NCBI GenBank assembly: GCA_037444665.1
Contig: JBBILZ010000038.1
Coordinates: forward strand, 1-25,629
Length of the DNA: 25,629 nucleotides
Direction: 5' to 3'
Source: a candidate division WOR-3 bacterium
GTDB taxonomy: Bacteria > Hydrothermota > Tepidihabitantia > SM23-42 > JAOAFX01
Part shown: piece after piece, positions 2,346 to 15,350 of the stretch
Layout: the number at the start of each line of letters is the position of its first letter
Numbering within the stretch: the stretch's first letter is position 1
The notes under the pieces: model-generated
Seen by the model: the letters and a program-made list of their open reading frames with translations, nothing else
Databases searched by the model: none
What the model was told of the DNA's origin: nothing
Position numbers and translations under genes: made by a program

Positions 2346-2486
2346 CTACGGAAGTGGTACATCTCTTCCGCGTTCTGCTGGATCGATACTCCATACATTT
2401 TCATTATTGGTATCGATCTCATTGGGCAAGATAACAACGCCCAATCGTCCCAACAAACCTAATAAATGCTGGAGCAATATCTGCAT
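2346..2486 (-). CDS. 46-aa putative RiPP precursor MQILLQHLLGLLGRLGVVILPNEIDTNNENVWSIDPAERGRDVPLP (not in ORF track)
   Basis: Hand-translated; AGGAGGT RBS 4 nt before ATG; tandem stops TAG TAA; first ORF with a consensus RBS after the sigma54 promoter, followed by a hairpin then rSAM + methyltransferase. Confidence 0.75.
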   Translation of the reverse strand: MQILLQHLLGLLGRLGVVILPNEIDTNNENVWSIDPAERGRDVPLP

Positions 2487-2540: not shown

Positions 2541-2680
2541 ACCCCGGCCCCCGAGGATTACGACCTTTTTGAAGGACCCTTTTCGCTGCTGATTTTTGTA
2601 GGCAGGTCTTTAATACAACCAGCATCTAAACCCACAAACCAATAACCATGCCTTTTAAACAGCAGGGGTCAGGGCCGGAA
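2541..2680 (-). ncRNA. Putative structured cis-regulatory leader RNA, copy 1
   Basis: 138/140 identical to 5951-6090; nested pairings CCGGCCC/GGGCCGG, GACCC/GGGUC, CUGCUG/CAGCAG, AGGCA/UGCCU; lies between the sigma54 promoter and the first gene. Confidence 0.55.
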
Positions 2681-2730
2681 CAGTCTGGTCTATCTGGTTT
2701 CTCTGGTTTTTTTAGTTTTTCTGGTTTCAT
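2681..2730. repeat. Degenerate 9-bp tandem repeat (e.g. TCTGGTTTC, TCTGGTCTA)
   Basis: Visible 9-nt periodicity; the homologous tract at 6091-6176 is 36 nt (4 units) longer. Confidence 0.75.
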
Positions 2731-2796
2731 AATTCCTCTCTGCCTTTCTTTGCCTTCAGTTACCCTTAATTGCCCTGTCATTTCTATCCCCAATTC

Positions 2797-2890
2797 TTTT
2801 TCGCCTTCTTTAGCCATATTTAGCCCCTTTTCGCCATATTTAGCCCCTTTTCGCCATATTGAGCCCTTTTGAGCCTTTTTTCGCCATCTA
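2797..2890. repeat. 10/20-bp tandem repeat (TAGCCCCTTTTCGCCATATT)
   Basis: 2821-2840 is identical to 2841-2860, flanked by degenerate 10-mers of the form nnGCCnnnTT. Confidence 0.85.
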
Positions 2891-2901
2891 CGGATTATAT
2901 A

Positions 2902-2918
2902 TGCAAAAACCGTGCCAG
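2902..2918 (-). promoter_or_regulatory. Sigma54 (-24/-12) promoter, cassette C
   Basis: CTGGCACGGTTTTTGCA matches the YTGGCACGrNNNTTGCW consensus; identical at 6384-6400 and 13120-13136. Confidence 0.9.
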
Positions 2919-3007
2919 GTGTAAAGTGCTGAAATTTCAAGACTTTGAATTTTTTAGCTGATGGCTAATATCAGTAACTCTAAAACAGTGTCGATTTTCT
3001 TCGGAAA

Positions 3008-3040
3008 TCAACTATTTTCTTCCGGGCAGAAAATAGTTGA
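3008..3040. other. 13-bp perfect inverted repeat (terminator of the 758-aa gene, or an operator of cassette C)
   Basis: TCAACTATTTTCT-N7-AGAAAATAGTTGA; only a weak U-tract. Confidence 0.5.
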
Positions 3041-3086
3041 AGTACTAATAACCATACCATGATTTTCAACTTTTCAAACTATATTA

Positions 3087-5363
3087 TTATCGTATTACTG
3101 ATCTTTTATAGAGCAATAAATTTAAAAAAACAATAACATATAAGCAAGCAGCAATTAAGAAATTGTATTTATAACCAAAATATTGAGCAACAATCATAGC
3201 AAATACGCTACCGAAAACTGACATAATACCATTTATTCCATAAGCAACACCTATATCAGCATTGTGCTGTTTAGCAAACATAGCAATTATCATTGGGAAA
3301 AACATCCCCATTGGAAAACCTATGATTATTGTTATGATACCAACAAAAATAATTTGTAATACTTCATTTATACTGCCTAAGTTTAACATTAAAAAATCAA
3401 TAAAAAGGAATAGTAGTAACCCTATAACCGGCATCAATATTAAAATAATTCTCTTCCTATAATGTATGCTAAATAAGCCACCCAGACTACAGGCAACCAA
3501 AAAACTGAATAACACAACACCAAAAGACAATAATGGCTTGCCTAAAAAATAAATAAATTTTTGAATTATTGAAACTTCCATTAACATAAAACCAGCACCC
3601 AGTAGATAGAAATTTGATATTAATAAATAGTTACCTTTTCTTTTAAGGGACAGCAACATTAAAATTGCCAAAATAGCGGTAATAATACATAAACTAATAA
3701 ATGACCAGTGCGGACTCCTGGAAAAATCAAAGAAGAACGGTTTTTCATCAATTACTGGTTTAATATTAATACCCTCATTCTTCTGCACCCTATTAATAAA
3801 ATACTCTAACTCGCCTAATGAAGCGAATTTTATATCCATTTTTTCATTTACAAAAGGCAGAAATTTAACAATAAGATTTCTTTTAAGAGATTCATTTTTT
3901 ATAGCCTCTGCCATAAGCGTATCTATTTCATTTTTGAAAAATAGTATCAAATATCTGTACGGTGAATCAGTTAGAAAATTCTGAATAATTGCCAGATGTT
4001 TATATGTATCAGACATATTTATACCTGACTCTTGCAAGGCAAAAGTCATTGTGGTGATTGATCGCAAAAGGAATGGATATGTCTCACAAAAAAGTGCAAC
4101 CACACCATTCGGTTTTAAATGATTATAATAATCTTTATACGCTTCTACGGTATGAAGATAACTCTCCGCATAGGGTATTCCAGTTTTTGTAGTTGTATTA
4201 GTCAATGAAAGGCTCAAAAAAATTAAATCATATTTTTGCTTATTTCTCCTTAAAAAATTTCTACCCTCTCCATCCGTAAATTTTAAGCGTGGATTATTTA
4301 ATATATTTCCATTAAAATCTTTGTATTCTTCCAAGATTTTTCTAATACTGGGATTTATCTCTACCGCATCAATTCTATTCATTCCAGCAATTTCACCAAG
4401 GATTATATCAAGCCCACCTCCAGGACCGATACTGAGAAAGTTTTCTTTTAATGTAAATTCAAATGGGAGATAATTAATTGTGTTTTTAAGCCATTTTAGA
4501 TTTTCAAAACCAGCACGAGCATTAAACATAATTGAAGGTGCACCACCATCCACAAAAATTGCCTTTGTTTCTAAGTTATTTCTGTAGATTATGATATCGG
4601 TCCTAAACACATAACTCCAATAGGTCTTTTCAATCCGGGCATTTTTGTTTTTTTGCAATAATTGAACCATTACTTTTCTACCTTGATTTGACGGAATCTT
4701 ATCAAAAGGAATGTCAATGAATTGCGTTTTAATATTAATGAGAAAAAGTATAAATAAAACAACAAATCCAATCGTATAGTTCGGTTTCCTCAATGCCAAT
4801 ATTATGGTAACCAAAACAATTAATTGGTATATCAGGATAACATTTATTGGATTAAATATATTGAGGAGAAATATACTGATCAATACACCAATGCCCGCAC
4901 CAAACAGGTCGGAAAAATACACTACACCAACATAATTAAAAAATAAACGGTAATAAATACTTATAATTATTCCAGCAAGAAGGAACTGCGGCAAGAAGAT
5001 GCATGCCATGATTACCGCGTGAGTTAGTAAGATTGGCAGTAATAGAGGTACAAATAACGGAATAAAAAAAGCAAGACCGTATAATATGCAAATTAATAGT
5101 ATATGTTTCTCCCCTAAATCAAATTTTGATGTTAGCAAACCGCCAAATCCATAACCCAGAAGTGCTATAGAAATAGATAAAAAGATATAATAGTTGCTGA
5201 AGATTAATGAAAAATACCTGGTAATGGTGATTTCAAAGCCTAGACTCGTAAGTGAAATAACAAATAATATTATGCTTGAGTTCAATAGACACATTATATT
5301 TGGTATAGTATTTTGGTTACTTATTTTTTCTTCCCAATACACTGTTATTATTATATCCAACAT
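3087..5363 (-). CDS. Polytopic membrane protein with a central spermidine-synthase-like (class I SAM-fold) domain
   Basis: N- and C-terminal hydrophobic helix blocks (Y-F-S-D-L-F-G-A-G-I-G; LGAGFMLMEV; GFPMGMFFP; YGINGIMSVFGS); central LSIGPGGGLD, DAVEINP, EGRNFL, YDLIFLS; true start may be the later Met (MCLLNSS). Confidence 0.8.
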   Translation of the reverse strand: MLDIIITVYWEEKISNQNTIPNIMCLLNSSIILFVISLTSLGFEITITRYFSLIFSNYYIFLSISIALLGYGFGGLLTSKFDLGEKHILLICILYGLAFFIPLFVPLLLPILLTHAVIMACIFLPQFLLAGIIISIYYRLFFNYVGVVYFSDLFGAGIGVLISIFLLNIFNPINVILIYQLIVLVTIILALRKPNYTIGFVVLFILFLINIKTQFIDIPFDKIPSNQGRKVMVQLLQKNKNARIEKTYWSYVFRTDIIIYRNNLETKAIFVDGGAPSIMFNARAGFENLKWLKNTINYLPFEFTLKENFLSIGPGGGLDIILGEIAGMNRIDAVEINPSIRKILEEYKDFNGNILNNPRLKFTDGEGRNFLRRNKQKYDLIFLSLSLTNTTTKTGIPYAESYLHTVEAYKDYYNHLKPNGVVALFCETYPFLLRSITTMTFALQESGINMSDTYKHLAIIQNFLTDSPYRYLILFFKNEIDTLMAEAIKNESLKRNLIVKFLPFVNEKMDIKFASLGELEYFINRVQKNEGINIKPVIDEKPFFFDFSRSPHWSFISLCIITAILAILMLLSLKRKGNYLLISNFYLLGAGFMLMEVSIIQKFIYFLGKPLLSFGVVLFSFLVACSLGGLFSIHYRKRIILILMPVIGLLLFLFIDFLMLNLGSINEVLQIIFVGIITIIIGFPMGMFFPMIIAMFAKQHNADIGVAYGINGIMSVFGSVFAMIVAQYFGYKYNFLIAACLYVIVFLNLLLYKRSVIR

Positions 5364-5390
5364 ATTGCAGAAATCAAGTAGTTGTTAGAA

Positions 5391-5437
5391 AAATAAAAAA
5401 GTACCGGGGAGTCTTTTTTTATATCTCCCCGGTACTT
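5391..5437 (-). terminator. Intrinsic terminator after the small secreted-protein gene
   Basis: 13-bp stem AAGTACCGGGGAG (5399-5411) / CTCCCCGGTACTT (5425-5437), followed by a U-rich tract on the - strand. Confidence 0.8.
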
Positions 5438-5467
5438 CACCTATTGAATGATTATATGAATTACCGA

Positions 5468-5883
5468 TTAATTGCCAGCATCATTTGGTGGAGGGGGCGT
5501 TGATCTTGTGCATTGAAAATTGTAAGACCCAAGATCCCAGTGAGGCTGCCAGGTATAAGATGGACTCCAATCTGAATATTTAGACACACCATTCTCTACA
5601 ATGTGTGCATAGGCTCTGAATGTTCCTGATTGAAGACCTGTCTCACAGTTTATCAGAAACCAACTATTTCCGCTTGTATATTCGTATGCTGTAGTATCTA
5701 CTGTTCCTGTGCTATACCTAACAACAATCTTTCGGAATTGATTACCCGCCCCTTGTCCCTGACTATTATAAACATATCCATTCAATCCACACTTGGTTCT
5801 GGGATCGTGGTGCTTGTTTGCAGCGTTTAAAAAAATGCAAAACCAATGCACAGCATTATGATTAGGGCAAAGTATTTCCTCAT
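5468..5883 (-). pseudogene. Small secreted protein (~138 aa) frameshifted in a T7 tract at 5829-5835
   Basis: AGGAGG RBS + ATG at 5883 gives MRKYFALIIMLCIGFAFF* (signal-peptide-like); one extra T joins it to LNA-ANKHHDPRTKCG... of the track ORF 5468-5923. Confidence 0.7.
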
Positions 5884-5950
5884 AAAAACCTCCTATGCTT
5901 TTGAATGAAGTATGATACTTCATTCATATCCTAATGCTTTTTATTATTGC

Positions 5951-6090
5951 ACCCCGGCCCCCGAGGATTACGACCTTTTTGAAGGACCCTTCTCGCTGCT
6001 GATTTTTGTAGGCAGGTCTTTAATACAACCAGCATCTAAACCCACAAACCAATAACCATGCCTTTTAAACAGCAGGGGTCAGGACCGGAA
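5951..6090 (-). ncRNA. Putative structured cis-regulatory leader RNA, copy 2
   Basis: Differs from copy 1 at two sites: one in a predicted bulge (5992) and one changing C-G to a U-G wobble on the - strand (6084). Confidence 0.55.
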
Positions 6091-6176
6091 CTGTTTGGTC
6101 TATCTGGTTTCTCTGGTCTATTTGGTCTTTTTGGTCTGTTTAGTCTTTCTGGTTTATTTAGTTTATCTGGTTTCAT
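6091..6176. repeat. Degenerate 9-bp tandem repeat, expanded copy
   Basis: Units such as TTTGGTCTA, TCTGGTTTC, TTTAGTCTT. Confidence 0.75.
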
Positions 6177-6205
6177 AGTTCATTTCTGCCTTTCTTTGCC
6201 TTCAA

Positions 6206-6300
6206 TTGCCATTTTTCCCTTCTTTTCCCTTCTTTACCCTTCTTTACCCCTTTTTACCCCTTTATACATAGCCTTCTTTAGCCATCTTTCGCCTATTTAG
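6206..6300. repeat. Degenerate 10-bp pyrimidine-rich tandem repeat (CCCTTCTTTW, GCCWTCTTT)
   Basis: Visible 10-nt periodicity; positionally equivalent to 2797-2890. Confidence 0.7.
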
Positions 6301-6383
6301 TTAATCTCGTTCCTTCATTTCGTTTTTTTATTTTTTAAACCAGCATCTCAACCCAAACCCAATAACTATCTGGCAAATATATA

Positions 6384-6400
6384 TGCAAAAACCGTGCCAG
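6384..6400 (-). promoter_or_regulatory. Sigma54 (-24/-12) promoter, cassette B
   Basis: CTGGCACGGTTTTTGCA, consensus match. Confidence 0.9.
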
Positions 6401-6438: not shown

Positions 6439-6534
6439 TGTGCCATTTTTGGCACAGAGTTATCCACATTTTTTCCACAAAATCACGCAAACGCAGGACA
6501 GTTCAGCATCTATACGAGTGCCAAATTTGGCACA
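6439..6534. promoter_or_regulatory. Two palindromic putative upstream activating sequences GTGCCA-N4-TGGCAC
   Basis: TGTGCCATTTTTGGCACA (6439-6456) and AGTGCCAAATTTGGCACA (6517-6534), upstream of the sigma54 promoter. Confidence 0.65.
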
Positions 6535-6666
6535 ACCCCCAATTTTTGCCTGATTTTTACCAGCCAAGACGAAAACCCTACGAAATTTCAAAAATTTTGT
6601 TGAAACTTTTGAATAAAAATTTGCTAAATTTTTGCTACACTTTTTGACCTGCTGATTTTTTATTTT

Positions 6667-6771
6667 GTCATTCTGACTCTGAGCGGAGCGAAAGGAAAGA
6701 ATCTGTAATTGAGATTCTTCGCCCGCCACTCTCCGCCACACTTCTTGGCGGATTGGCGGGCTCAGAATGAC
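6667..6771. repeat. REP/RPE-like palindromic intergenic element
   Basis: Ends GTCATTCTGA...TCAGAATGAC with inner AAGAATCT/AGATTCTT and GCCCGCCA/TGGCGGGC stems; GC-rich against an AT-rich background. Confidence 0.7.
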
Positions 6772-6830
6772 AGGTAGGATGTTGCTTGCCCTTTTTGCCT
6801 CCAATGCCTTCAATTGCCCCCAATTGCCTT

Positions 6831-8933
6831 TTAAAAATATACCAGATACTTTGCCTTTATTGCCCCAACCTGATTCTGTAACCTAAGACTGCCATTCTGA
6901 TCTGTGCGATAGTCATTTAAAGCAATATATAACCACGATTTGGGCTTAAAATTATAAGAAAAGAGAAAACCAAAGCGATTGGTCAAAAATTCTGTAGCAC
7001 CAAAGTCTGTGCCCGGTGTAGTAAAGACAAATTCATTGAAGATGCCAAAGGTCATTTTTGGGGTAATCGTAAAATCTATCCTCGGCGTTGCCATGGGCCA
7101 GATCGCAATGATTGTATTTGTCGTATCCCATTCTACCCAGGAATAAGAATCAAAATTTATTGAAACACGGGGCATTATTGTCCAGTAAAACCCATGATAG
7201 GTATTTGCCTGATACCCAAGAAATCCCCGATAATAATTGTAAGAATAACTCACATTACCACCTGCCCAGATATTATAACTTGGACCATTACCCCAGATTG
7301 ATAGATTCACATTCCTTGTAAGATAACTGGTATCTGACTCATAATAAGGCCCTGCCTCAAGCTCCAGATTCCCACCCCAATTATTCCTGAAATTGGGATT
7401 GAAACATATAAATCCAATCCTTGACCAGTCTTTTCCACCTGGTATCCGACCTATCGCACCACCAAAACCAAGCCAGAGATTCCTCATAAAACCTTTTGGG
7501 TAGGTCTTATATGGACCAGTAAAGAATAAAAACTGCCTCACACCTGCCCAGGGCACATATCCAATATCCTTTACATCAAATGAATCTCCTATCCACTGCA
7601 CACTGCCTAAAGTAAGAAAATTCTTAATAAAACCCATATACCCTGAATTGAATGCCCACCCTTTTTTGTTGTCTCTGTCACTGAATGCAGTCTGCATAAT
7701 AAACTGATTCGGACCTGAACGATATGCACCATCAAGACCAATTGCATAATTATATGTATCACTATTTACTGCTGTGCCACTGAAAAGTATGCCTAAGTCT
7801 GAGGCAGATAAAACCTTATACTTTGCCCTCAATACACCAAAGCCACGAGCCGGCTCAATCAGGGTATCATTATGCTTTATCTTATCAGTATATGCACCAA
7901 AAAGACCATAATTCAATCTCTCGGATTTACTTGTTAATTTCAAACCCCCAATTATATCCACAACTTCACTATTGATTGATTTACCTATTCTCCGCGAATA
8001 GAAAATCCGCAATGGCTTAAAGAATCCTGTACCCTGACCAAAGTCTGACATCCGAAAGATATCTGCACCCTCAAGGAAGAATGGCCTTCGCTCACTCAGA
8101 TAGGTCTCATACTGGGTTAAATTCAATGTGAATGGGTCAGATTCAATCTGGGCAAAGTCAGGAAATGCAGTGGCATTGAGTGTGGTCTGGGAAGTAATAT
8201 CCCATTTAAGATTCATACTACCACTGAATTTGGTTTCAGTCTTAACACTATCTTTATCACGGCGCAAAAAACCCTCAGGATAGATTTCAAAATAATAACC
8301 AGTTGCCTGGGGATTGATATTCTTTAATGTGCCAAACTTTGAAACGAGCATCCCCTCTTTCTGTGAGACTTCGGTCCAGTAATCAGTCTCCTGATTTGAA
8401 GAGATATAACGCTTAAAGTTTATTCCCCATTCAGAAAGTCCCTTTTTATAACGAATGGACTTGAATGGTATTTTAATCTCAACTTCATAATGGTCATCAT
8501 AGACTTTTACTGCATAATCCCAGACCCCATCCCAGGAATCGTCCCTTGTCCTGCCGTCATCAAGAACTAAACCATCAGAATATATGCCACTTATATGAAC
8601 GGCAAATGAGTAGGCGGTTGTCTTAATACCAAATGGGTCAATATATAATACAACTGCATCATCATTTGAACTCATCTGATTTACTGGCTTTGAATTCAAT
8701 GTCCAGCATCTGAATGCAACAAATAGGTTATTTTTGTCCTGTAAAAGATAGACCACTGTATTATCGGTTGGTTTTTCTTTCTCATAAGGAAAGGTCTGGA
8801 TAAAATCATAGGTAGAATCTGCATTCTGCCAGATTTCTTCAATATACCCATCAACCACTGGTGCAACCTCACAAAACCGCACCTCAAGGGATTTGTTTGC
8901 CGAACATAATAAAAAGATTATTAAAAAATCCAT
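6831..8933 (-). CDS. DUF5916 / carbohydrate-binding family 9-like putative outer-membrane protein
   Basis: N-terminal hydrophobic signal; P-VVDG...W and SWDGVW...EIKIPFKSIRY (CBM9-like); PDFAQIESD, ERRPFFLEG, FYSRRIG motifs; C-terminal KAKYLVYF beta-barrel-type ending. Confidence 0.8.
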   Translation of the reverse strand: MDFLIIFLLCSANKSLEVRFCEVAPVVDGYIEEIWQNADSTYDFIQTFPYEKEKPTDNTVVYLLQDKNNLFVAFRCWTLNSKPVNQMSSNDDAVVLYIDPFGIKTTAYSFAVHISGIYSDGLVLDDGRTRDDSWDGVWDYAVKVYDDHYEVEIKIPFKSIRYKKGLSEWGINFKRYISSNQETDYWTEVSQKEGMLVSKFGTLKNINPQATGYYFEIYPEGFLRRDKDSVKTETKFSGSMNLKWDITSQTTLNATAFPDFAQIESDPFTLNLTQYETYLSERRPFFLEGADIFRMSDFGQGTGFFKPLRIFYSRRIGKSINSEVVDIIGGLKLTSKSERLNYGLFGAYTDKIKHNDTLIEPARGFGVLRAKYKVLSASDLGILFSGTAVNSDTYNYAIGLDGAYRSGPNQFIMQTAFSDRDNKKGWAFNSGYMGFIKNFLTLGSVQWIGDSFDVKDIGYVPWAGVRQFLFFTGPYKTYPKGFMRNLWLGFGGAIGRIPGGKDWSRIGFICFNPNFRNNWGGNLELEAGPYYESDTSYLTRNVNLSIWGNGPSYNIWAGGNVSYSYNYYRGFLGYQANTYHGFYWTIMPRVSINFDSYSWVEWDTTNTIIAIWPMATPRIDFTITPKMTFGIFNEFVFTTPGTDFGATEFLTNRFGFLFSYNFKPKSWLYIALNDYRTDQNGSLRLQNQVGAIKAKYLVYF

Positions 8934-9085
8934 AAACCTCCTTTGATTGTGAAATACCGAATATCAATTAAACTCCTATTTCTAAACATTATTAAATTTC
9001 TGTCTCGCCAGCATCCCAACCACAACCCCAAACCATCTTTTATTTGTAATACGCAATTTATACAAAAAAGTTTCAATTTATTTTA

Positions 9086-9864: not shown

Positions 9865-11538
9865 CTATGTTGTCTTAGAGTTACAAATTTCTCCATTCTT
9901 GATTTTGTAGACATAATCTGCCATTCTTAGTAGTGAATGCCGATGTGTAGTAATTAATACCGTTCTATTTTCCGCAAGTTTCTTCAACTCCTTCAAAATC
10001 TTATCTTCTGTAGACCTATCTAAGGCTGAAGTTGGTTCATCCATAATTATAATTGGTGGTGATTTAAGAAAGATACGGGCAATGGCAATTCTCTGGCGCT
10101 CACCCCCTGAAAGAGAAAATCCACGCTCTCCAACCACTGTTTGAAAACCGCTGGGCAGTGCCACAATAAATTCATAAAGACCTGCCTTCCTTGTCGCCTC
10201 TTTAATTTCTTCTTCGGTAGCATCTAAGCGGGCAATTTGAATATTCTCATAAATAGAGCGATTAAAGATATAAGTATCTTGCTCCATCAGCCCTATCATC
10301 CTCAACCATTCTTCTAGTTTAACATCATTTAAGTCAACATTATTTATCCTTATTACGCCTGACTCAGGTTTAAGAAATCCCAAAAGTAAGTTAACAAGTG
10401 TAGTCTTTCCAGAACCAGAATATCCCATTAATGCGACTATCTTTGACCTTGGAATTTTTAAATGAATATTATTTAGGATGGGTTTGTGATTATCATAGCT
10501 GAATTTGACTCTTTCAAAGCAAATATATTCAATATTTGTTGGTAAAGGCGAGTATATTTTTTTAATTGGGGATGGTTTGTATTGGCGGAATTCATAAAGC
10601 CTTTCAATTGAAGCGATGGCAGGTTGTAGACCACTTACCAGTACGGATAAACCTCTTAGTGGCGTAGTTGCAGTCATAAAAAGGAGTATAAAACTCATAA
10701 ATCCGCCAACGGACAAACTATTTCGCATAACTTCGTTAATTCCTATCCATATAAGAACTCCCAAAATTGGAAAATATAACAGTGTAGGAATACTAGAACC
10801 AAAGATTATATTCCGCCAAGAAAAATGCCATTGGACCTTTAAGTATAGATAAAGCTGGGAGGCAAAGACTTTTTTTTCGTTCTCCTCTAAACCAAAGGCG
10901 TGAATTATATTTATCCCCTGGAGAGTCTCTTGAATTCTTGCTCCAAGTTGAGCATAATATTCTTGGATCTTTTTAGCCCAAGGGCGTAGCCGGGGCGCGA
11001 TGAAATATAAGTTTAATATAAATAGCGGATATATAGTAAGTCCGATTAGCGCAAGTTTGGAGTTAAGAGAGAGCAAGGACCAAACAAGGAAGATTGCAGA
11101 TAATACCTGACCCAAAGCCATTAAATTTTCTTTACTTATCAATTCCATAGACCCCTCTACATCCTTTAATATCCGCTGGAGTATGTATCCAGATTGTTTA
11201 GAAAAAATAACTGCCGTAGGTATTCCTAAGGAATGATTATAGAAATATTCCCGGAGAGTTTGCTCGATGCGCAGTTTTAATCTTAAAAACAAAATTCCTT
11301 TGAGAATATTAAAACAAAATCCAAAAGTAATTACCACCAGATAAATAATCCCCCATCGCATAAGAACCATTGGTTCTTTGGTATAGACGGCTGCATCAAC
11401 CAATGGTTTAATAAATAAGAAATAGCACATTGTAATAATCTCGGCAGCAATAAAAAGAATGGAAACGATAATAAAGTTTAGCCAAAGTTTATTGAAAAAG
11501 GTTGAGAAATACCAGCAAAGCAGTTTCTTTGCCTTCAT
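9865..11538 (-). CDS. ABC exporter, fused permease + ATPase, without a C39 peptidase domain
   Basis: Hydrophobic N-terminal half; Walker A GYSGSGKT, signature LSGGERQR, Walker B IIIMDEP, H-loop TTHR. Confidence 0.95.
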   Translation of the reverse strand: MKAKKLLCWYFSTFFNKLWLNFIIVSILFIAAEIITMCYFLFIKPLVDAAVYTKEPMVLMRWGIIYLVVITFGFCFNILKGILFLRLKLRIEQTLREYFYNHSLGIPTAVIFSKQSGYILQRILKDVEGSMELISKENLMALGQVLSAIFLVWSLLSLNSKLALIGLTIYPLFILNLYFIAPRLRPWAKKIQEYYAQLGARIQETLQGINIIHAFGLEENEKKVFASQLYLYLKVQWHFSWRNIIFGSSIPTLLYFPILGVLIWIGINEVMRNSLSVGGFMSFILLFMTATTPLRGLSVLVSGLQPAIASIERLYEFRQYKPSPIKKIYSPLPTNIEYICFERVKFSYDNHKPILNNIHLKIPRSKIVALMGYSGSGKTTLVNLLLGFLKPESGVIRINNVDLNDVKLEEWLRMIGLMEQDTYIFNRSIYENIQIARLDATEEEIKEATRKAGLYEFIVALPSGFQTVVGERGFSLSGGERQRIAIARIFLKSPPIIIMDEPTSALDRSTEDKILKELKKLAENRTVLITTHRHSLLRMADYVYKIKNGEICNSKTT

Positions 11539-11551
11539 ATTAAAAAATCAA

Positions 11552-12856
11552 TCAGTTTTCTTTCCTTTTTTCTGCATGCAGAAGTAGTAATTGTTTGAAT
11601 ATATACCGCCAGTAAATACAACCCGACTCGCGATTCTCAGGTTCAGTCTCTCTGCGCCGGGGGCATCCTCCTAAGCAGATAGGAACGATGGGACAACACA
11701 AACACCCTTCAGTCGCCCGCCAATTAGAAAAGATCCATTCTATGGTGCGATTTTTCTTCAAATCTATTCCAGTTTCAATGTTACCCACAGCCTTATCTTC
11801 ATCACCAACATCTTCCCAACACGCATATATTTCTCCGCATGGTCCTATCACCCAGCTAGAAAATTTTTTCCAAATACAACTATTAAAAGAAGGATAAAGG
11901 GCTGGTAATGGTAAATTCAATCGCCTCATCTCCTTTAATATCTTTAAATAATATTGACCAAAATTTGATGTCGTGAATAATGTATCTCCACGGGATTTAC
12001 ATATAGAACCTGCTTTAGAAATGACCTGGCCGAAATTAATCGTCAACCGATCCCAATTCTTTATTGAAGCAGCTAAGTCTTTTAAAAAAGGGAGCATATA
12101 TTTTTCATTCTCTTTATCAATATTTATTCTTAATTTTACCCTGATATCGATTTTATTAGCAAGGATATCAAAAATATTTCGCATTATAATATCATAGGTG
12201 CCAGTTCCATCCTTAAAAGGTCGTCGGAAGTTGTGAATTTCAGATGGGCCATCAATCGTTACTTGTGCATCTGTAATTTTACATAACGAAAAGAAATCTC
12301 TGTCGCATTCTGATATTAACGTTCCATTTGTAACCAACCCAGCGGTATATTTAATATCCCGTTTACTACATTCAGTTTGAATGGTTTGTGATATTTTAGC
12401 AATTGTATCCATCTCTAAAAGGGGTTCGCCTCCATACCAAGTAATGTGCAAAGAGGCTGGATGAAATTCATCTATCTTTTGTAGAATAAAAATAATCACC
12501 TTTTTTGTGATAGAAGCATCCATACCGACATTTTTGTTTGTAGTCGTTTCATAGCAGTAAATGCACTGCAGGTTGCAAAAAAGAGTGGGGATTATTGTGA
12601 AACTGATATTCACTGATGAATATTTCAGTGAATAATAGAGGTGGTTAACATAAGATATTTCATTAAATGCATTCGGCACCCAAAAAAGTCCTTTTACCAA
12701 CTCCTGAATCACTTCAGATGATATGGAAGTTTCTTTTCCTTCTAAAAAGGCAACTATTTTACCATCTATCTTACACAAGGCATTCGTTAACGGATTATAT
12801 GCTAAATAGTTATCTTTACCGAAAGGAATTATTAAATTAAATTTATTTTTTCGCAT
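11552..12856 (-). CDS. Radical SAM/SPASM peptide maturase
   Basis: CNLQCIYC, WYGGEPL, TNG, TIDG; SPASM C...GPCGEIYAC...CLCCPIVPICLGGC...C; ~80-aa N-terminal extension (possible RRE); start placed at MRKNKF (12856) rather than TTG 12883. Confidence 0.92.
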   Translation of the reverse strand: MRKNKFNLIIPFGKDNYLAYNPLTNALCKIDGKIVAFLEGKETSISSEVIQELVKGLFWVPNAFNEISYVNHLYYSLKYSSVNISFTIIPTLFCNLQCIYCYETTTNKNVGMDASITKKVIIFILQKIDEFHPASLHITWYGGEPLLEMDTIAKISQTIQTECSKRDIKYTAGLVTNGTLISECDRDFFSLCKITDAQVTIDGPSEIHNFRRPFKDGTGTYDIIMRNIFDILANKIDIRVKLRINIDKENEKYMLPFLKDLAASIKNWDRLTINFGQVISKAGSICKSRGDTLFTTSNFGQYYLKILKEMRRLNLPLPALYPSFNSCIWKKFSSWVIGPCGEIYACWEDVGDEDKAVGNIETGIDLKKNRTIEWIFSNWRATEGCLCCPIVPICLGGCPRRRETEPENRESGCIYWRYIFKQLLLLHAEKRKEN

Positions 12857-12904
12857 AATGCACTCTTTCTCCCTTTTATGCAAAAATTTTAATCTTTGTG
12901 AGTT

Positions 12905-12972: not shown

Positions 12973-13092
12973 CTATTCTACTTCGTATCCAGATCCACCG
13001 AGGCAAAAACAAATAGGCGAACAAAACTCACTACATTTAACACCACATGGCCCGCCTATGGGCGATGATGGTTTTTCAATCCATGAAAGCAT
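12973..13092 (-). CDS. 39-aa Cys-rich RiPP precursor MLSWIEKPSSPIGGPCGVKCSEFCSPICFCLGGSGYEVE (not in ORF track)
   Basis: Hand-translated; AGGAGGT RBS 4 nt before ATG; ATG ~17 nt after the predicted sigma54 start site; CxxxCxxxCxxxCxC; directly upstream of rSAM/SPASM + ABC exporter. Confidence 0.85.
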   Translation of the reverse strand: MLSWIEKPSSPIGGPCGVKCSEFCSPICFCLGGSGYEVE

Positions 13093-13473: not shown

Positions 13474-13517
13474 GGGATTGCCACGCCCGCCGAGAATCGC
13501 GGTGGGCTCGCAATGAC
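13474..13517. repeat. Partial REP/RPE-like palindromic element
   Basis: GGGATTGCCACGCCCGCCG...CGGTGGGCTCGCAATGAC; resembles the right half of 6667-6771. Confidence 0.55.
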
Positions 13518-13556
13518 ACTGAGTATGAATAATGCGGGTTAGACCGAAGGCAAAAA

Positions 13557-15350
13557 TTAGTCACCTACTTTTTTGTTGACTATCTTGAGGTACCGATAGA
13601 GCTGGGCACGGGATATTTTTAGACTTGCACAGGTCTTTTTAATATCTTTATTGTTTGAAATAAAACATTCGTAAATTAACTTTGCTTTATATTGCTTAAC
13701 CTTTTCTTCAATTGACAATGGCTCAATAGATTTTAATCCCAAATCCTCCACACCAATCTCAGACTTTTTACAGAATAGGTATGCCTGCCTTAATATGCCT
13801 TCAAGTTCTCTAACATTTCCCGGAAAGTCATAATTTGTTAGCGCAGCTATTGCCTCCTCAGAGATGCCTTCAACAAAATTCTTAGACTGACTTTTTAACT
13901 TTAAAAATATGTGCCATACCAGTTCAGGAATCTCCTCCTTTCGTTCACGCAGGGGTGGAATCCGAATTGAAGGTGAATAGATACGATAGTATAGGTCTTC
14001 ACGGAATTTTTTATCCCGGACCATCTGCTTTAAGTCTTTATTCGTCGCAAAGATAAATCGCACATCAACTTTTTTTGCTTCATTTGAACCGAGTCTACAT
14101 ACTACCCTGTCCTCAAGCACTCGTAATAGTTTACCCTGAACATCTAAGGGCAGATCACCAACTTCATCTAAGAAGAGCGTCCCCTTATCAGCAAATACTA
14201 TCTTACCCTCACGGTCTGCGCGGGCATCAGTGAATGCACCTTTTTTATAACCGAATAACTCAGCCTCAAAGAGATTCTCAGGAATTGTATTACAATTTAC
14301 TGCCACAAATCTACCAGCTGCCCTTTTACTTTCATTATGAATCGCTGAGGCAAGCAATTCCTTGCCTGTTCCACTCTCACCAATAATCAAGATATTTGAT
14401 TCCTGATGTGCCAGACGTCTTGCCTCTCTTTTTATTGCTTTTAGTCCAATAATATCCTCAAATGTAAATTTTGCCAGTGTACTATTTATCTTCTCACTTT
14501 TTTCAAGTTCCTCCTGCACGAGTTCAAATAAGAATAAATAATTTTTATTATAAGATTTACGCACCACAAGAAAACTCTTTTCCAGTATTTGTGAGTATAT
14601 CACCCGATTTATAATCTCTTGCCTCTGCAATAATTTTTCATCAAAATAACCAGTTATATTGTTCCCTTTTTCTATTTTTAATAATTTCCCTGCACAGGGA
14701 TTGAGATAGCATATCACACCATCCAGGTCTGTCACGACTATGGCAGTATGTAAGGTATTACAAACTGAAATCACAAAATTCCCCTCTAATACATTCTCGT
14801 ATTCTTTTTCGATCAGCATTGCTAAGGTCTGAACCAGGGCAAATGTATGAGGATGACCAATTTTATGAGGATGCACTATTACAATCGTTCCTAATAATGT
14901 ATGATTATTAAAGATCGGCGCACTAAAACACGCACCTTTCTGGAAAATTTTTAGATAATATTCCTTACCGGCAACAAAGACTGGTTTCTTATGTTTGATA
15001 CTGAGGGCTACCGCATTTGTCCCTGCATCCTCTTCACGCAAGGAAACACCTTCAGCTAAATCCATACGAATGCGCTGCCGCAATATTTTATCTGGACCAA
15101 TGACTTTTATAACATAACCTTCACTATCAGTCAAAACTATTATTGAATCACACATTCTAAATATATCACTGCAAATTTTCATATAAGGGAATGCTGAGGT
15201 TATGAAAATTTCATTATCTTTTTGACATTTGATGAGCGCAGAACTGGATAGTCTCCTGGTAAGACGACGCCTATCAGGAGCAAGTCCCATTCTCTGACAA
15301 CGGTCTTTTGATTCAATTATCCATTTTTTCCGCTCATCATTTTTCTTCAT
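13557..15350 (-). CDS. Sigma54-dependent transcriptional activator (AcoR-like: GAF - PAS-like - AAA+ - Fis HTH)
   Basis: I-ES--RC-R-GL and GTNAVAL (AcoR-type N-terminus); GESGTGKE, ELFGYKKGAFTDA, TLFLDEVG, FREDLYYR, FPGNVREL; HTH LKISRAQLYRYLK; AGGAG RBS. Confidence 0.93.
   Translation of the reverse strand: MKKNDERKKWIIESKDRCQRMGLAPDRRRLTRRLSSSALIKCQKDNEIFITSAFPYMKICSDIFRMCDSIIVLTDSEGYVIKVIGPDKILRQRIRMDLAEGVSLREEDAGTNAVALSIKHKKPVFVAGKEYYLKIFQKGACFSAPIFNNHTLLGTIVIVHPHKIGHPHTFALVQTLAMLIEKEYENVLEGNFVISVCNTLHTAIVVTDLDGVICYLNPCAGKLLKIEKGNNITGYFDEKLLQRQEIINRVIYSQILEKSFLVVRKSYNKNYLFLFELVQEELEKSEKINSTLAKFTFEDIIGLKAIKREARRLAHQESNILIIGESGTGKELLASAIHNESKRAAGRFVAVNCNTIPENLFEAELFGYKKGAFTDARADREGKIVFADKGTLFLDEVGDLPLDVQGKLLRVLEDRVVCRLGSNEAKKVDVRFIFATNKDLKQMVRDKKFREDLYYRIYSPSIRIPPLRERKEEIPELVWHIFLKLKSQSKNFVEGISEEAIAALTNYDFPGNVRELEGILRQAYLFCKKSEIGVEDLGLKSIEPLSIEEKVKQYKAKLIYECFISNNKDIKKTCASLKISRAQLYRYLKIVNKKVGD

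Follow-up and report, generated by a model that had tools for sequence, protein, structure and literature searches.

In attenuators of the pyrBI/pyrL, trp and his type a leader open reading frame (ORF) runs through a hairpin and the ribosome physically competes with that hairpin. Two further arrangements have been reported: for ppe2 of Mycobacterium tuberculosis a B12 riboswitch is combined with an upstream ORF and termination-reinitiation (PMC11260477), and for iraD control by CsrA is exerted via a coupled upstream ORF (PMC5574718). Here we describe a structured RNA element that occurs twice, on the - strand, in a stretch of 25,629 nucleotides (nt; hereafter the window) of the genome of a candidate division WOR-3 bacterium (contig JBBILZ010000038.1, assembly GCA_037444665.1). 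The element is a conserved hairpin module that lies inside a small, putatively translated leader ORF, in the sigma-54 or sigma-70 leaders of peptide, secreted-protein and maturase operons.

The element belongs to none of the ppe2, iraD and classical attenuator arrangements. With the attenuators it shares a small leader ORF and a potential competition between the ribosome and a leader hairpin, but it lacks a U tract or terminator, a conserved antiterminator alternative and a run of regulatory codons, and its leader ORFs are long (30-150 codons). As reported for ppe2, a structured leader RNA and a translated upstream ORF would bear on the gene behind; there, however, the aptamer is of the known B12 class and lies outside the upstream ORF, whereas the present element is of no known class and lies inside it (PMC11260477). 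The likeness to iraD, as reported, is that the stop of the upstream ORF overlaps or abuts the main start and that the factor binds far 5' of the main ribosome binding site, but binding is to GGA motifs at the ORF start, whereas our element is a long hairpin inside the ORF, in a genome in which no CsrA gene was found (PMC5574718).

An earlier note on the window had pointed to the near-identity of 2541-2680 and 5951-6090 (- strand), and indeed these differ at only 2 positions in 140 nt of alignment; a repeat finder extends the pair to 2528-2725 and 5938-6135 (198 nt, 93%). Both differences fit the fold, as had been proposed, since one is a C/U in stem P1 that turns a C-G into a U-G pair and the other an A/G in a 6-nt bulge. 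The gap to the start codon, which is preceded by AGGAGG, is 55 nt for copy A and 68 nt for copy B, in keeping with the first estimate, and the copies sit ~230 nt (A) and ~300 nt (B) 3' of two near-identical sigma-54 promoters. The elements, scored with a covariance model (R1) built from 17 copies, and their leader ORFs are as follows.

2542..2680, - strand: structured element, copy A (R1 match at 2538-2686, 145.7 bits; also based on the fold and on pair counts), consisting of P1 5' strand, P2 5' strand, variable P3 hairpin, 6-nt bulge, P2 3' strand, conserved bulge of ~22 nt and P1 3' strand
5952..6090, - strand: structured element, copy B (R1 match at 5948-6096, 148.4 bits), with 2 differences from copy A
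2626..2730, - strand: leader ORF A, 34 codons from the ATG at 2730 (sequence and frame analysis)
6036..6176, - strand: leader ORF B, 46 codons from the ATG at 6176, with frame and stop as in copy A

Both leader ORFs pass through 9-nt repeats, then read the 5' strand of the hairpin as GSGPDPC and end at a TAG stop in the P3 loop; for leader ORF A an alternative in-frame ATG at 2817 would give 63 codons. The genome had been thought to hold two copies only. It actually holds three, the third lying on another contig (81% identical over 182 nt) in a leader that is similar in kind, but behind a sigma-70-like promoter.

The stems that had been named from the sequence are all present in the minimum-free-energy fold of the - strand, which is one long irregular hairpin of -48.9 kcal/mol (versus -41.2 for the + strand). 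The z-score of this single sequence against shuffles is -1.66 only, so that one sequence alone proves nothing and the support has to come from homologues. In the layout, read 5' to 3', the 5' strands of P1 (UUCCGGUCCU) and P2 (GACCC) lead into the variable hairpin P3, which is followed by the 6-nt bulge (C-GNRA-A type), the 3' strand of P2 (GGGUC), the conserved ~22-nt bulge (CCU-NN-AAAAA-R-GUCGU...) and the 3' strand of P1 (GGGGGCCGG). The 5' strand has ~26 nearly continuous paired positions, and the asymmetric bulges, two in number and both conserved, are on the 3' side only.

Comparison of homologues did reveal the compensatory changes that had been called for, mainly in P3. In a MAFFT alignment of 17 copies, which was not fitted to any structure, 92.5% of the cells are paired against 39-58% with slid partners, and there are 6 double-sided changes, all of them in P3. 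Two sets fitted to the model, which are by construction biased to the structure, gave 90.9% paired cells against 36-59% and 15 pairs changed on both sides (31 copies) and 94.9% against 30-56% and 7 such pairs (37 distinct copies). The observed covariation score was reached by none of 500 shuffles in each of the three alignments. In P3, 6-8 pairs have changed on both sides, and these changes are clearly compensatory. P1 and P2 are nearly invariant. For P2 no copy shows a double-sided change, so that this stem is uninformative either way, and variation in P1 is mostly one-sided (U-G, U-A, C-G), double-sided changes (C-G to U-A, for instance) being confined to the most distant copies. As the U-G pairs of P1 would be C-A mismatches on the opposite strand, the folded molecule is the gene-sense RNA. 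The P3 region varies from ~24 to 83 nt and carries interchangeable inserts, i.e., a GU-rich module, small hairpins and hairpins resembling repetitive extragenic palindromic (REP) sequences, and some 8 decayed copies lack the 3' strand of P1.

The covariation, together with the lack of any Rfam match, bears out that this is a conserved, strand-specific structured RNA located in cis. No Rfam 15 family reached its gathering threshold anywhere in the window, and at E values up to 10 the region 2450-2960 gave only two chance-level matches, both with an E of 1.7 and far below threshold. Full-text word searches of the literature, which are unable to prove absence, gave no description of the element.

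What had been overlooked, when the element was taken for part of an untranslated leader, is the small ORF that runs through it. We counted stop codons in the 50 of 62 distinct copies that carry both anchor motifs, leaving out the other 12. The variable stem contains 8, 63 and 70 stops in frames 0, 1 and 2, and 45 of the 50 copies have none in frame 0, although the copies are related to one another and these counts therefore overstate their independence. The same contrast was already seen in the first 21 copies (1, 37 and 31 stops), and the 3' conserved half has 3, 17 and 15 stops in the 45 copies open to there. Frame 0 is kept open despite the diverse lengths and sequences of the stems, and one copy has, compared with its relatives, lost 3 nt in frame. 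Upstream of the element frame 0 is open for a median of ~110 nt versus ~25-35 nt in the other frames. As for leader starts, an ATG is accompanied by a Shine-Dalgarno-like sequence in 26 copies and stands without one in 13, 4 copies offer only a TTG or GTG, and the distance between this start and the module ranges from 12 to >300 nt. We infer that the leader frame is translated.

An open frame with an ATG and a Shine-Dalgarno-like sequence in 26 of 50 copies, next to radical SAM peptide maturases, might equally be expected of a genuine gene for a small protein or precursor peptide, with a conserved GSGPDPC, a hypervariable rest and an mRNA that is structured by chance. Several observations speak against this explanation. 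The peptides ahead of orthologous genes are unrelated outside GSGPDPC, and the conserved bases of the 3' motif are read in all three frames (frames 0, 1 and 2 in 25, 10 and 10 of 45 copies). In distant copies the motif is altered, for instance to GFGSDTCG, with the base pairing kept. The synonymous sites of GSGPDPC are invariant in 57 distinct aligned rows, except for the paired C/U in P1 and a few other changes that are confined to the most divergent or decayed rows. Furthermore, four of the leader peptides matched no family in Pfam or NCBIfam. A peptide gene is, therefore, improbable. With the fold conserved, the frame open and the peptide variable, we conclude that selection keeps the RNA fold and the open frame, not a protein; judged from these sequences the peptide itself is not the product and its codons matter as an open frame.

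Translation through a hairpin also calls to mind recoding. In the -1 frameshift cassette of the dnaX type a purine-rich stretch and an A run ending in G lie near a hairpin, and our element likewise has a purine-rich stretch, a conserved A run (5-7 A, then G or T) in the large bulge, and a small alternative hairpin after it, so that hairpin-stimulated frameshifting at the A run, or translational bypass, might be proposed. However, with respect to the leader ORF the A run is found in each of the three frames, a point against programmed frameshifting, and, unlike in dnaX, no second frame is conserved after it. The element did give a weak match to an Rfam frameshift element (24.6 bits versus a threshold of 88), but this is due mostly to A-rich sequence, and recoding must be deemed very improbable. 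The element does not resemble a bacterial selenocysteine insertion sequence (SECIS), with its in-frame UGA shortly 5' of the hairpin, either, the only conserved UGA (in CCUGACC) lying outside the open frame.

Downstream, a Shine-Dalgarno sequence and start codon in the same orientation follow the element in 44 of 50 copies, in 34 of these at a distance of 36-68 nt. The genes behind the 44 copies comprise 23 small peptides of up to 81 codons, many of them Cys-rich and some with an NHLP-like leader, several of which have radical SAM maturases behind them; 13 proteins with a length of 100-222 residues and N-termini that look by eye like signal peptides; ~6 maturase-like proteins; and 2 that could not be classified. 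The two operons of the window, which had been called unrelated, are not unrelated in kind; precursor-like peptides, small secreted proteins and radical SAM maturases recur behind the element. A sigma-54 promoter was detected within 600 nt upstream of 16 of the 50 copies, using a strict pattern and with many loci cut off.

The fixed spacing to the start codon (34 of 44 copies) and the nearly continuous pairing of the 5' strand, bulged on the 3' side only, would suit an element of RNA processing or stability, i.e., a duplex that serves as substrate for a double-strand-specific RNase or as a shield for the mRNA behind it, and that in either case would part the repeat-rich leader from the coding part. 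Such a role leaves the open frame through the whole element unexplained, and we regard it as decidedly unlikely. The spacing bears as well on the possibility that the element is a selfish repeat that merely tolerates its position, comparable to a miniature inverted-repeat transposable element (MITE) or a REP sequence. The element is multi-copy and often found at contig ends, REP-like hairpins and mosaic tandem repeats abound in the genome, and REP-like inserts occur in some P3 stems. Nevertheless, the co-oriented start behind 44 of 50 copies, mostly at one distance, is not the pattern of such repeats, which would be found in either orientation and at varied positions relative to genes; the compensatory changes in P3 and the open frame are also at odds with it, and nothing similar was found in phage and plasmid collections. 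A scattered MITE, the refutation anticipated at the outset, can thus be set aside, a selfish repeat being extremely improbable. An origin from a phage or plasmid was likewise rejected, as there was no match in either collection. With respect to integrons, attC sites have a core consensus of the GTTRRRY type and lie in cassette arrays adjoining an integrase; inspection of the aligned ends showed no R''/R' core, and the copies are preceded by promoters and leaders, with no stacking of cassettes.

The element was found with R1 in 18 of the 49 genomes of the order, with 1-7 matches per genome. With the genome of the window itself left out, the family of the window contributes 11 of 15 genomes, another family 6 of 31, and a family of 2 genomes none. 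Across the phylum, sampled evenly, only 5 of 151 genomes gave a match, all within the order, and none was obtained in the 144 sampled genomes outside it. In public metagenome contigs the invariant 5' motif was found at 52 loci, which with 9 from a scan of genome contigs make 61 sources, and these contain 42 R1 matches at E ≤ 0.001.

How might such a module act? The reading that we favour, tentatively and with a confidence somewhat short of even, is that of a cis-acting, translation-linked gate which makes expression of the downstream genes depend on how ribosomes move along the leader. Fold and ribosome would then be in competition for it. Ribosomes translating the leader ORF would melt P1, P2 and P3 and reach a stop that usually lies within ~20 nt of the main start codon, so that a translated leader would stay covered and ribosomes may pass on to the main gene. 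If the leader is not translated, or if ribosomes are held at the hairpin, the module would fold, and its invariant helices with their two conserved bulges could form a docking surface for a candidate factor (a protein, a small ligand, Rho or an RNase) that lowers expression. A gene for Rho is present in the genome. The positions of the leader stops suggest coupling with the main gene: in 33 copies the leader frame runs without a stop through the whole of P1, and for 21 of these the stop falls within -20 to +21 nt of the main ATG, versus 31 of 77 control frames (the other frames of the same sequences), and an ATGA overlap of stop and start occurs in 6 of 33 copies versus 5 of 77 control frames. 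The attenuator-like trait of a leader ORF overlapping a hairpin is apparent from the depletion of stops in one frame and from the start codons, translation of this ORF being probable.

Several points weigh against a translation-linked gate. We infer transcription, translation and regulation in this organism throughout, from sequence comparison. Seven of the 50 copies have no in-frame start codon in the leader, although 3 of these are cut by a contig end. Leader stops are only modestly enriched around the main start, and this among related copies. Coupling may be unnecessary for the main genes, which carry their own strong Shine-Dalgarno sequences. In the window itself the leader ORFs stop in the P3 loop, for copy A 139 nt before the main start, and coupling can consequently not be general. 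In 11 of 50 copies a near-consensus sigma-70 promoter lies between the element and the gene, from which an mRNA without the element would be made. The predicted mean unpaired fraction of the main Shine-Dalgarno sequence in 38 copies is 0.44 with the element, 0.43 with its 5' strand blocked and 0.50 without it. Finally, no partner factor was identified for the element. Some simpler models were also considered and discarded. Masking of the Shine-Dalgarno sequence was rejected, the predicted accessibility being independent of the element, and so was a terminator or attenuator, as no terminator was seen on the sense strand after the element; the sequence following P1 is A-rich or mixed, and there is neither a terminator with U tract nor an antiterminator. 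A sigma-70 promoter as a general feature of the element was dismissed as well, since the 11 copies that have one lie mostly before one group of secreted proteins.

The invariant core helices and junction bases, combined with a covarying peripheral stem of variable length, are the typical layout of an aptamer, and the element does sit in the leaders of functionally similar genes. One could thus envisage that the element is an aptamer, akin to a riboswitch, to which a small molecule or second messenger binds, stiffening the fold and so holding back or releasing the ribosomes on the leader ORF; a riboswitch that controls a translated leader has a reported precedent in ppe2 (PMC11260477). A conserved aptamer core with covarying stems is indeed what we found, but no known class matches, and an expression platform is lacking, as there is no terminator-like site on the - strand after the element and the accessibility of the Shine-Dalgarno sequence is unchanged in the 38 copies, i.e., it is not sequestered. 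Moreover, the position of the module inside an ORF, 12 to >300 nt from its start, is odd for an aptamer, and the downstream genes hint at no ligand. This explanation is unlikely. Possible, though still on the doubtful side, is a 'translated riboswitch', a new class of regulatory RNA in which an aptamer-like hairpin within the ORF would bind a signal molecule or dedicated protein, gate the leader ribosomes and so set the output of an entire regulon of operons for modified peptides and secreted proteins.

The earlier note had suggested a role in antitermination and recommended a search for NusG paralogues. The genome has one paralogue besides the housekeeping NusG (174 residues; G000:C5:26903-27427, L079 1465-1989), and the element heads multi-gene operons, so that this paralogue, for one, might recognise or be loaded at the element for processive antitermination. 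However, there is no terminator to overcome, and the paralogue occurs in 46 of the 49 genomes of the order, versus 18 of 49 for the element. Its gene adjoins that of a NAD-dependent (sugar) epimerase and is unlinked to any copy of the element, and translation through the element would unfold the signal. Antitermination is quite improbable, and the suggestion is not upheld; given its near-universal occurrence in the order (46 of 49) the paralogue is an improbable partner.

The other features of the two loci in the window are listed below.

2683..2728, - strand: 9-nt tandem repeats of the AAACCAGAN type, 5 units, which supply leader ORF A with its N-terminal part (tandem repeat finder)
6093..6173, - strand: 9-nt tandem repeats, 9 units, which supply leader ORF B with its N-terminal part
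2797..2887, - strand: tandem repeats, purine-rich and of 10/20 nt, that separate leader ORF A from its promoter
6187..6294, - strand: tandem repeats, purine-rich and of 10/20 nt, that separate leader ORF B from its promoter
2902..2917, - strand: sigma-54 promoter (-24/-12 elements) of leader A (genome pattern scan; member of a 69-nt repeat family)
6384..6399, - strand: sigma-54 promoter of leader B (genome pattern scan; 69-nt repeat family)
2346..2486, - strand: precursor-like peptide gene after copy A, 46 codons, with AGGAGG before its ATG
1273-2226: radical SAM gene, behind the 46-codon peptide gene
440-1210: methyltransferase gene, behind the radical SAM gene
5468..5923, - strand: small secreted-protein homologue after copy B, with the signal peptide starting at an ATG at 5883

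Short tandem repeats make up a mosaic in the intergenic DNA of this genome, with 9-nt repeats (AAACCAGAN), purine-rich 10-nt repeats, a GTAG type and others, and such mosaics occupy 2797-2887, 6187-6294 and 6790-6830 of the window. Neither the 9-nt nor the 10-nt repeats of the window leaders are specific to the element; arrays of the 9-nt repeat occur, by pattern, at 25 places in the genome of which 3 adjoin a copy, within mosaics of other short tandem repeats. Some of the repeat arrays open with the same Shine-Dalgarno and ATG module as the leader ORFs of the window. CsrA was considered as a partner for the purine-rich repeats and rejected, its gene not having been found in the genome. Pairing of the 9-nt repeat with the GU-rich P3 loop was dismissed also, since the duplex energies at most marginally beat those of shuffles (fractions 0.037, 0.040 and 0.363) and the two features do not co-occur across copies. 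REP-like inverted repeats of the TGTCATT...AATGACA type lie in the intergenic regions 6670-6780 and 13480-13545 (- strand), and related hairpins are inserted in P3 of some copies in other genomes.

The GU-rich module of ~30 nt that forms the P3 loop of the window copies is also found alone at 6338-6369 (- strand), directly 3' of the promoter of leader B. Elsewhere in the genome (contigs C14, C36, C43, C57, C77 and C82) it serves as the 5' arm in long hairpins whose 3' arm is CA-rich and which end just 5' of Shine-Dalgarno sequences; one of these seems, by eye, to stand behind an L7/L12 gene. These hairpins may represent a second, separate family of leader RNAs.

In the operon of copy A a GC-rich hairpin with a T-rich tail (2278-2320, - strand) lies between the 46-codon peptide gene and the radical SAM gene, and, as a likely leaky terminator, would determine how much precursor is made relative to enzyme. 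The gene behind copy B has its signal peptide (5827-5883) and its mature part in different frames, joined at a run of 7 T (~5829-5835), which could be due to an assembly error, a pseudogene or a slippage-prone tract. A homologue with an intact N-terminus follows another copy of the element (L110), and intact homologues stand behind other copies as well.

A third sigma-54 promoter of the window, at 13135-13120 (- strand), has no element behind it. Under it lie, all on the - strand, a Cys-rich peptide of 39 codons (12973-13092), a radical SAM/SPASM maturase (11552-12883), whose best NCBIfam matches are maturases of Cys-rich peptides, all below their cut-offs, and an ATP-binding cassette (ABC) exporter (9865-11538); by its gene content this looks like a modified-peptide cluster. 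A gene for a GAF/sigma-54 activator (13557-15350, - strand) adjoins the cluster just upstream, and three TGTCTCA-N5-TGAGACA palindromes occur just 5' of the promoter. The three sigma-54 promoters have a common core and ~45 nt upstream of it in common, but different palindromes further upstream (6440-6560 and 2965-3060, - strand, with GTGCCA-N5-TGGCAC twice before leader B), which suggests that they respond to different activators. Finally, a direct repeat of 116 nt (1-116 and 8840-8955, 96% identical) covers the start of a DUF5916/CBM9 gene, and the copy at the left edge of the window is probably the start of a paralogue.

Structured leader RNAs are known, and so are leader ORFs, but a covarying, conserved fold that is kept in frame so that it can be read through is unusual, the more so as this arrangement is held across ~60 distinct copies and two bacterial families while the peptide is free to vary. 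The module is short (~110-140 nt) and portable and is, therefore, directly accessible to reporter fusions and RNA probing. For the uncultured order in which it occurs, the element marks a set of operons, encoding Cys-rich and NHLP-like precursor peptides, radical SAM maturases and small secreted proteins, many of them under sigma-54 promoters, as one post-transcriptional regulon, and the module could be a handle to find or switch on peptide natural-product clusters in this lineage.

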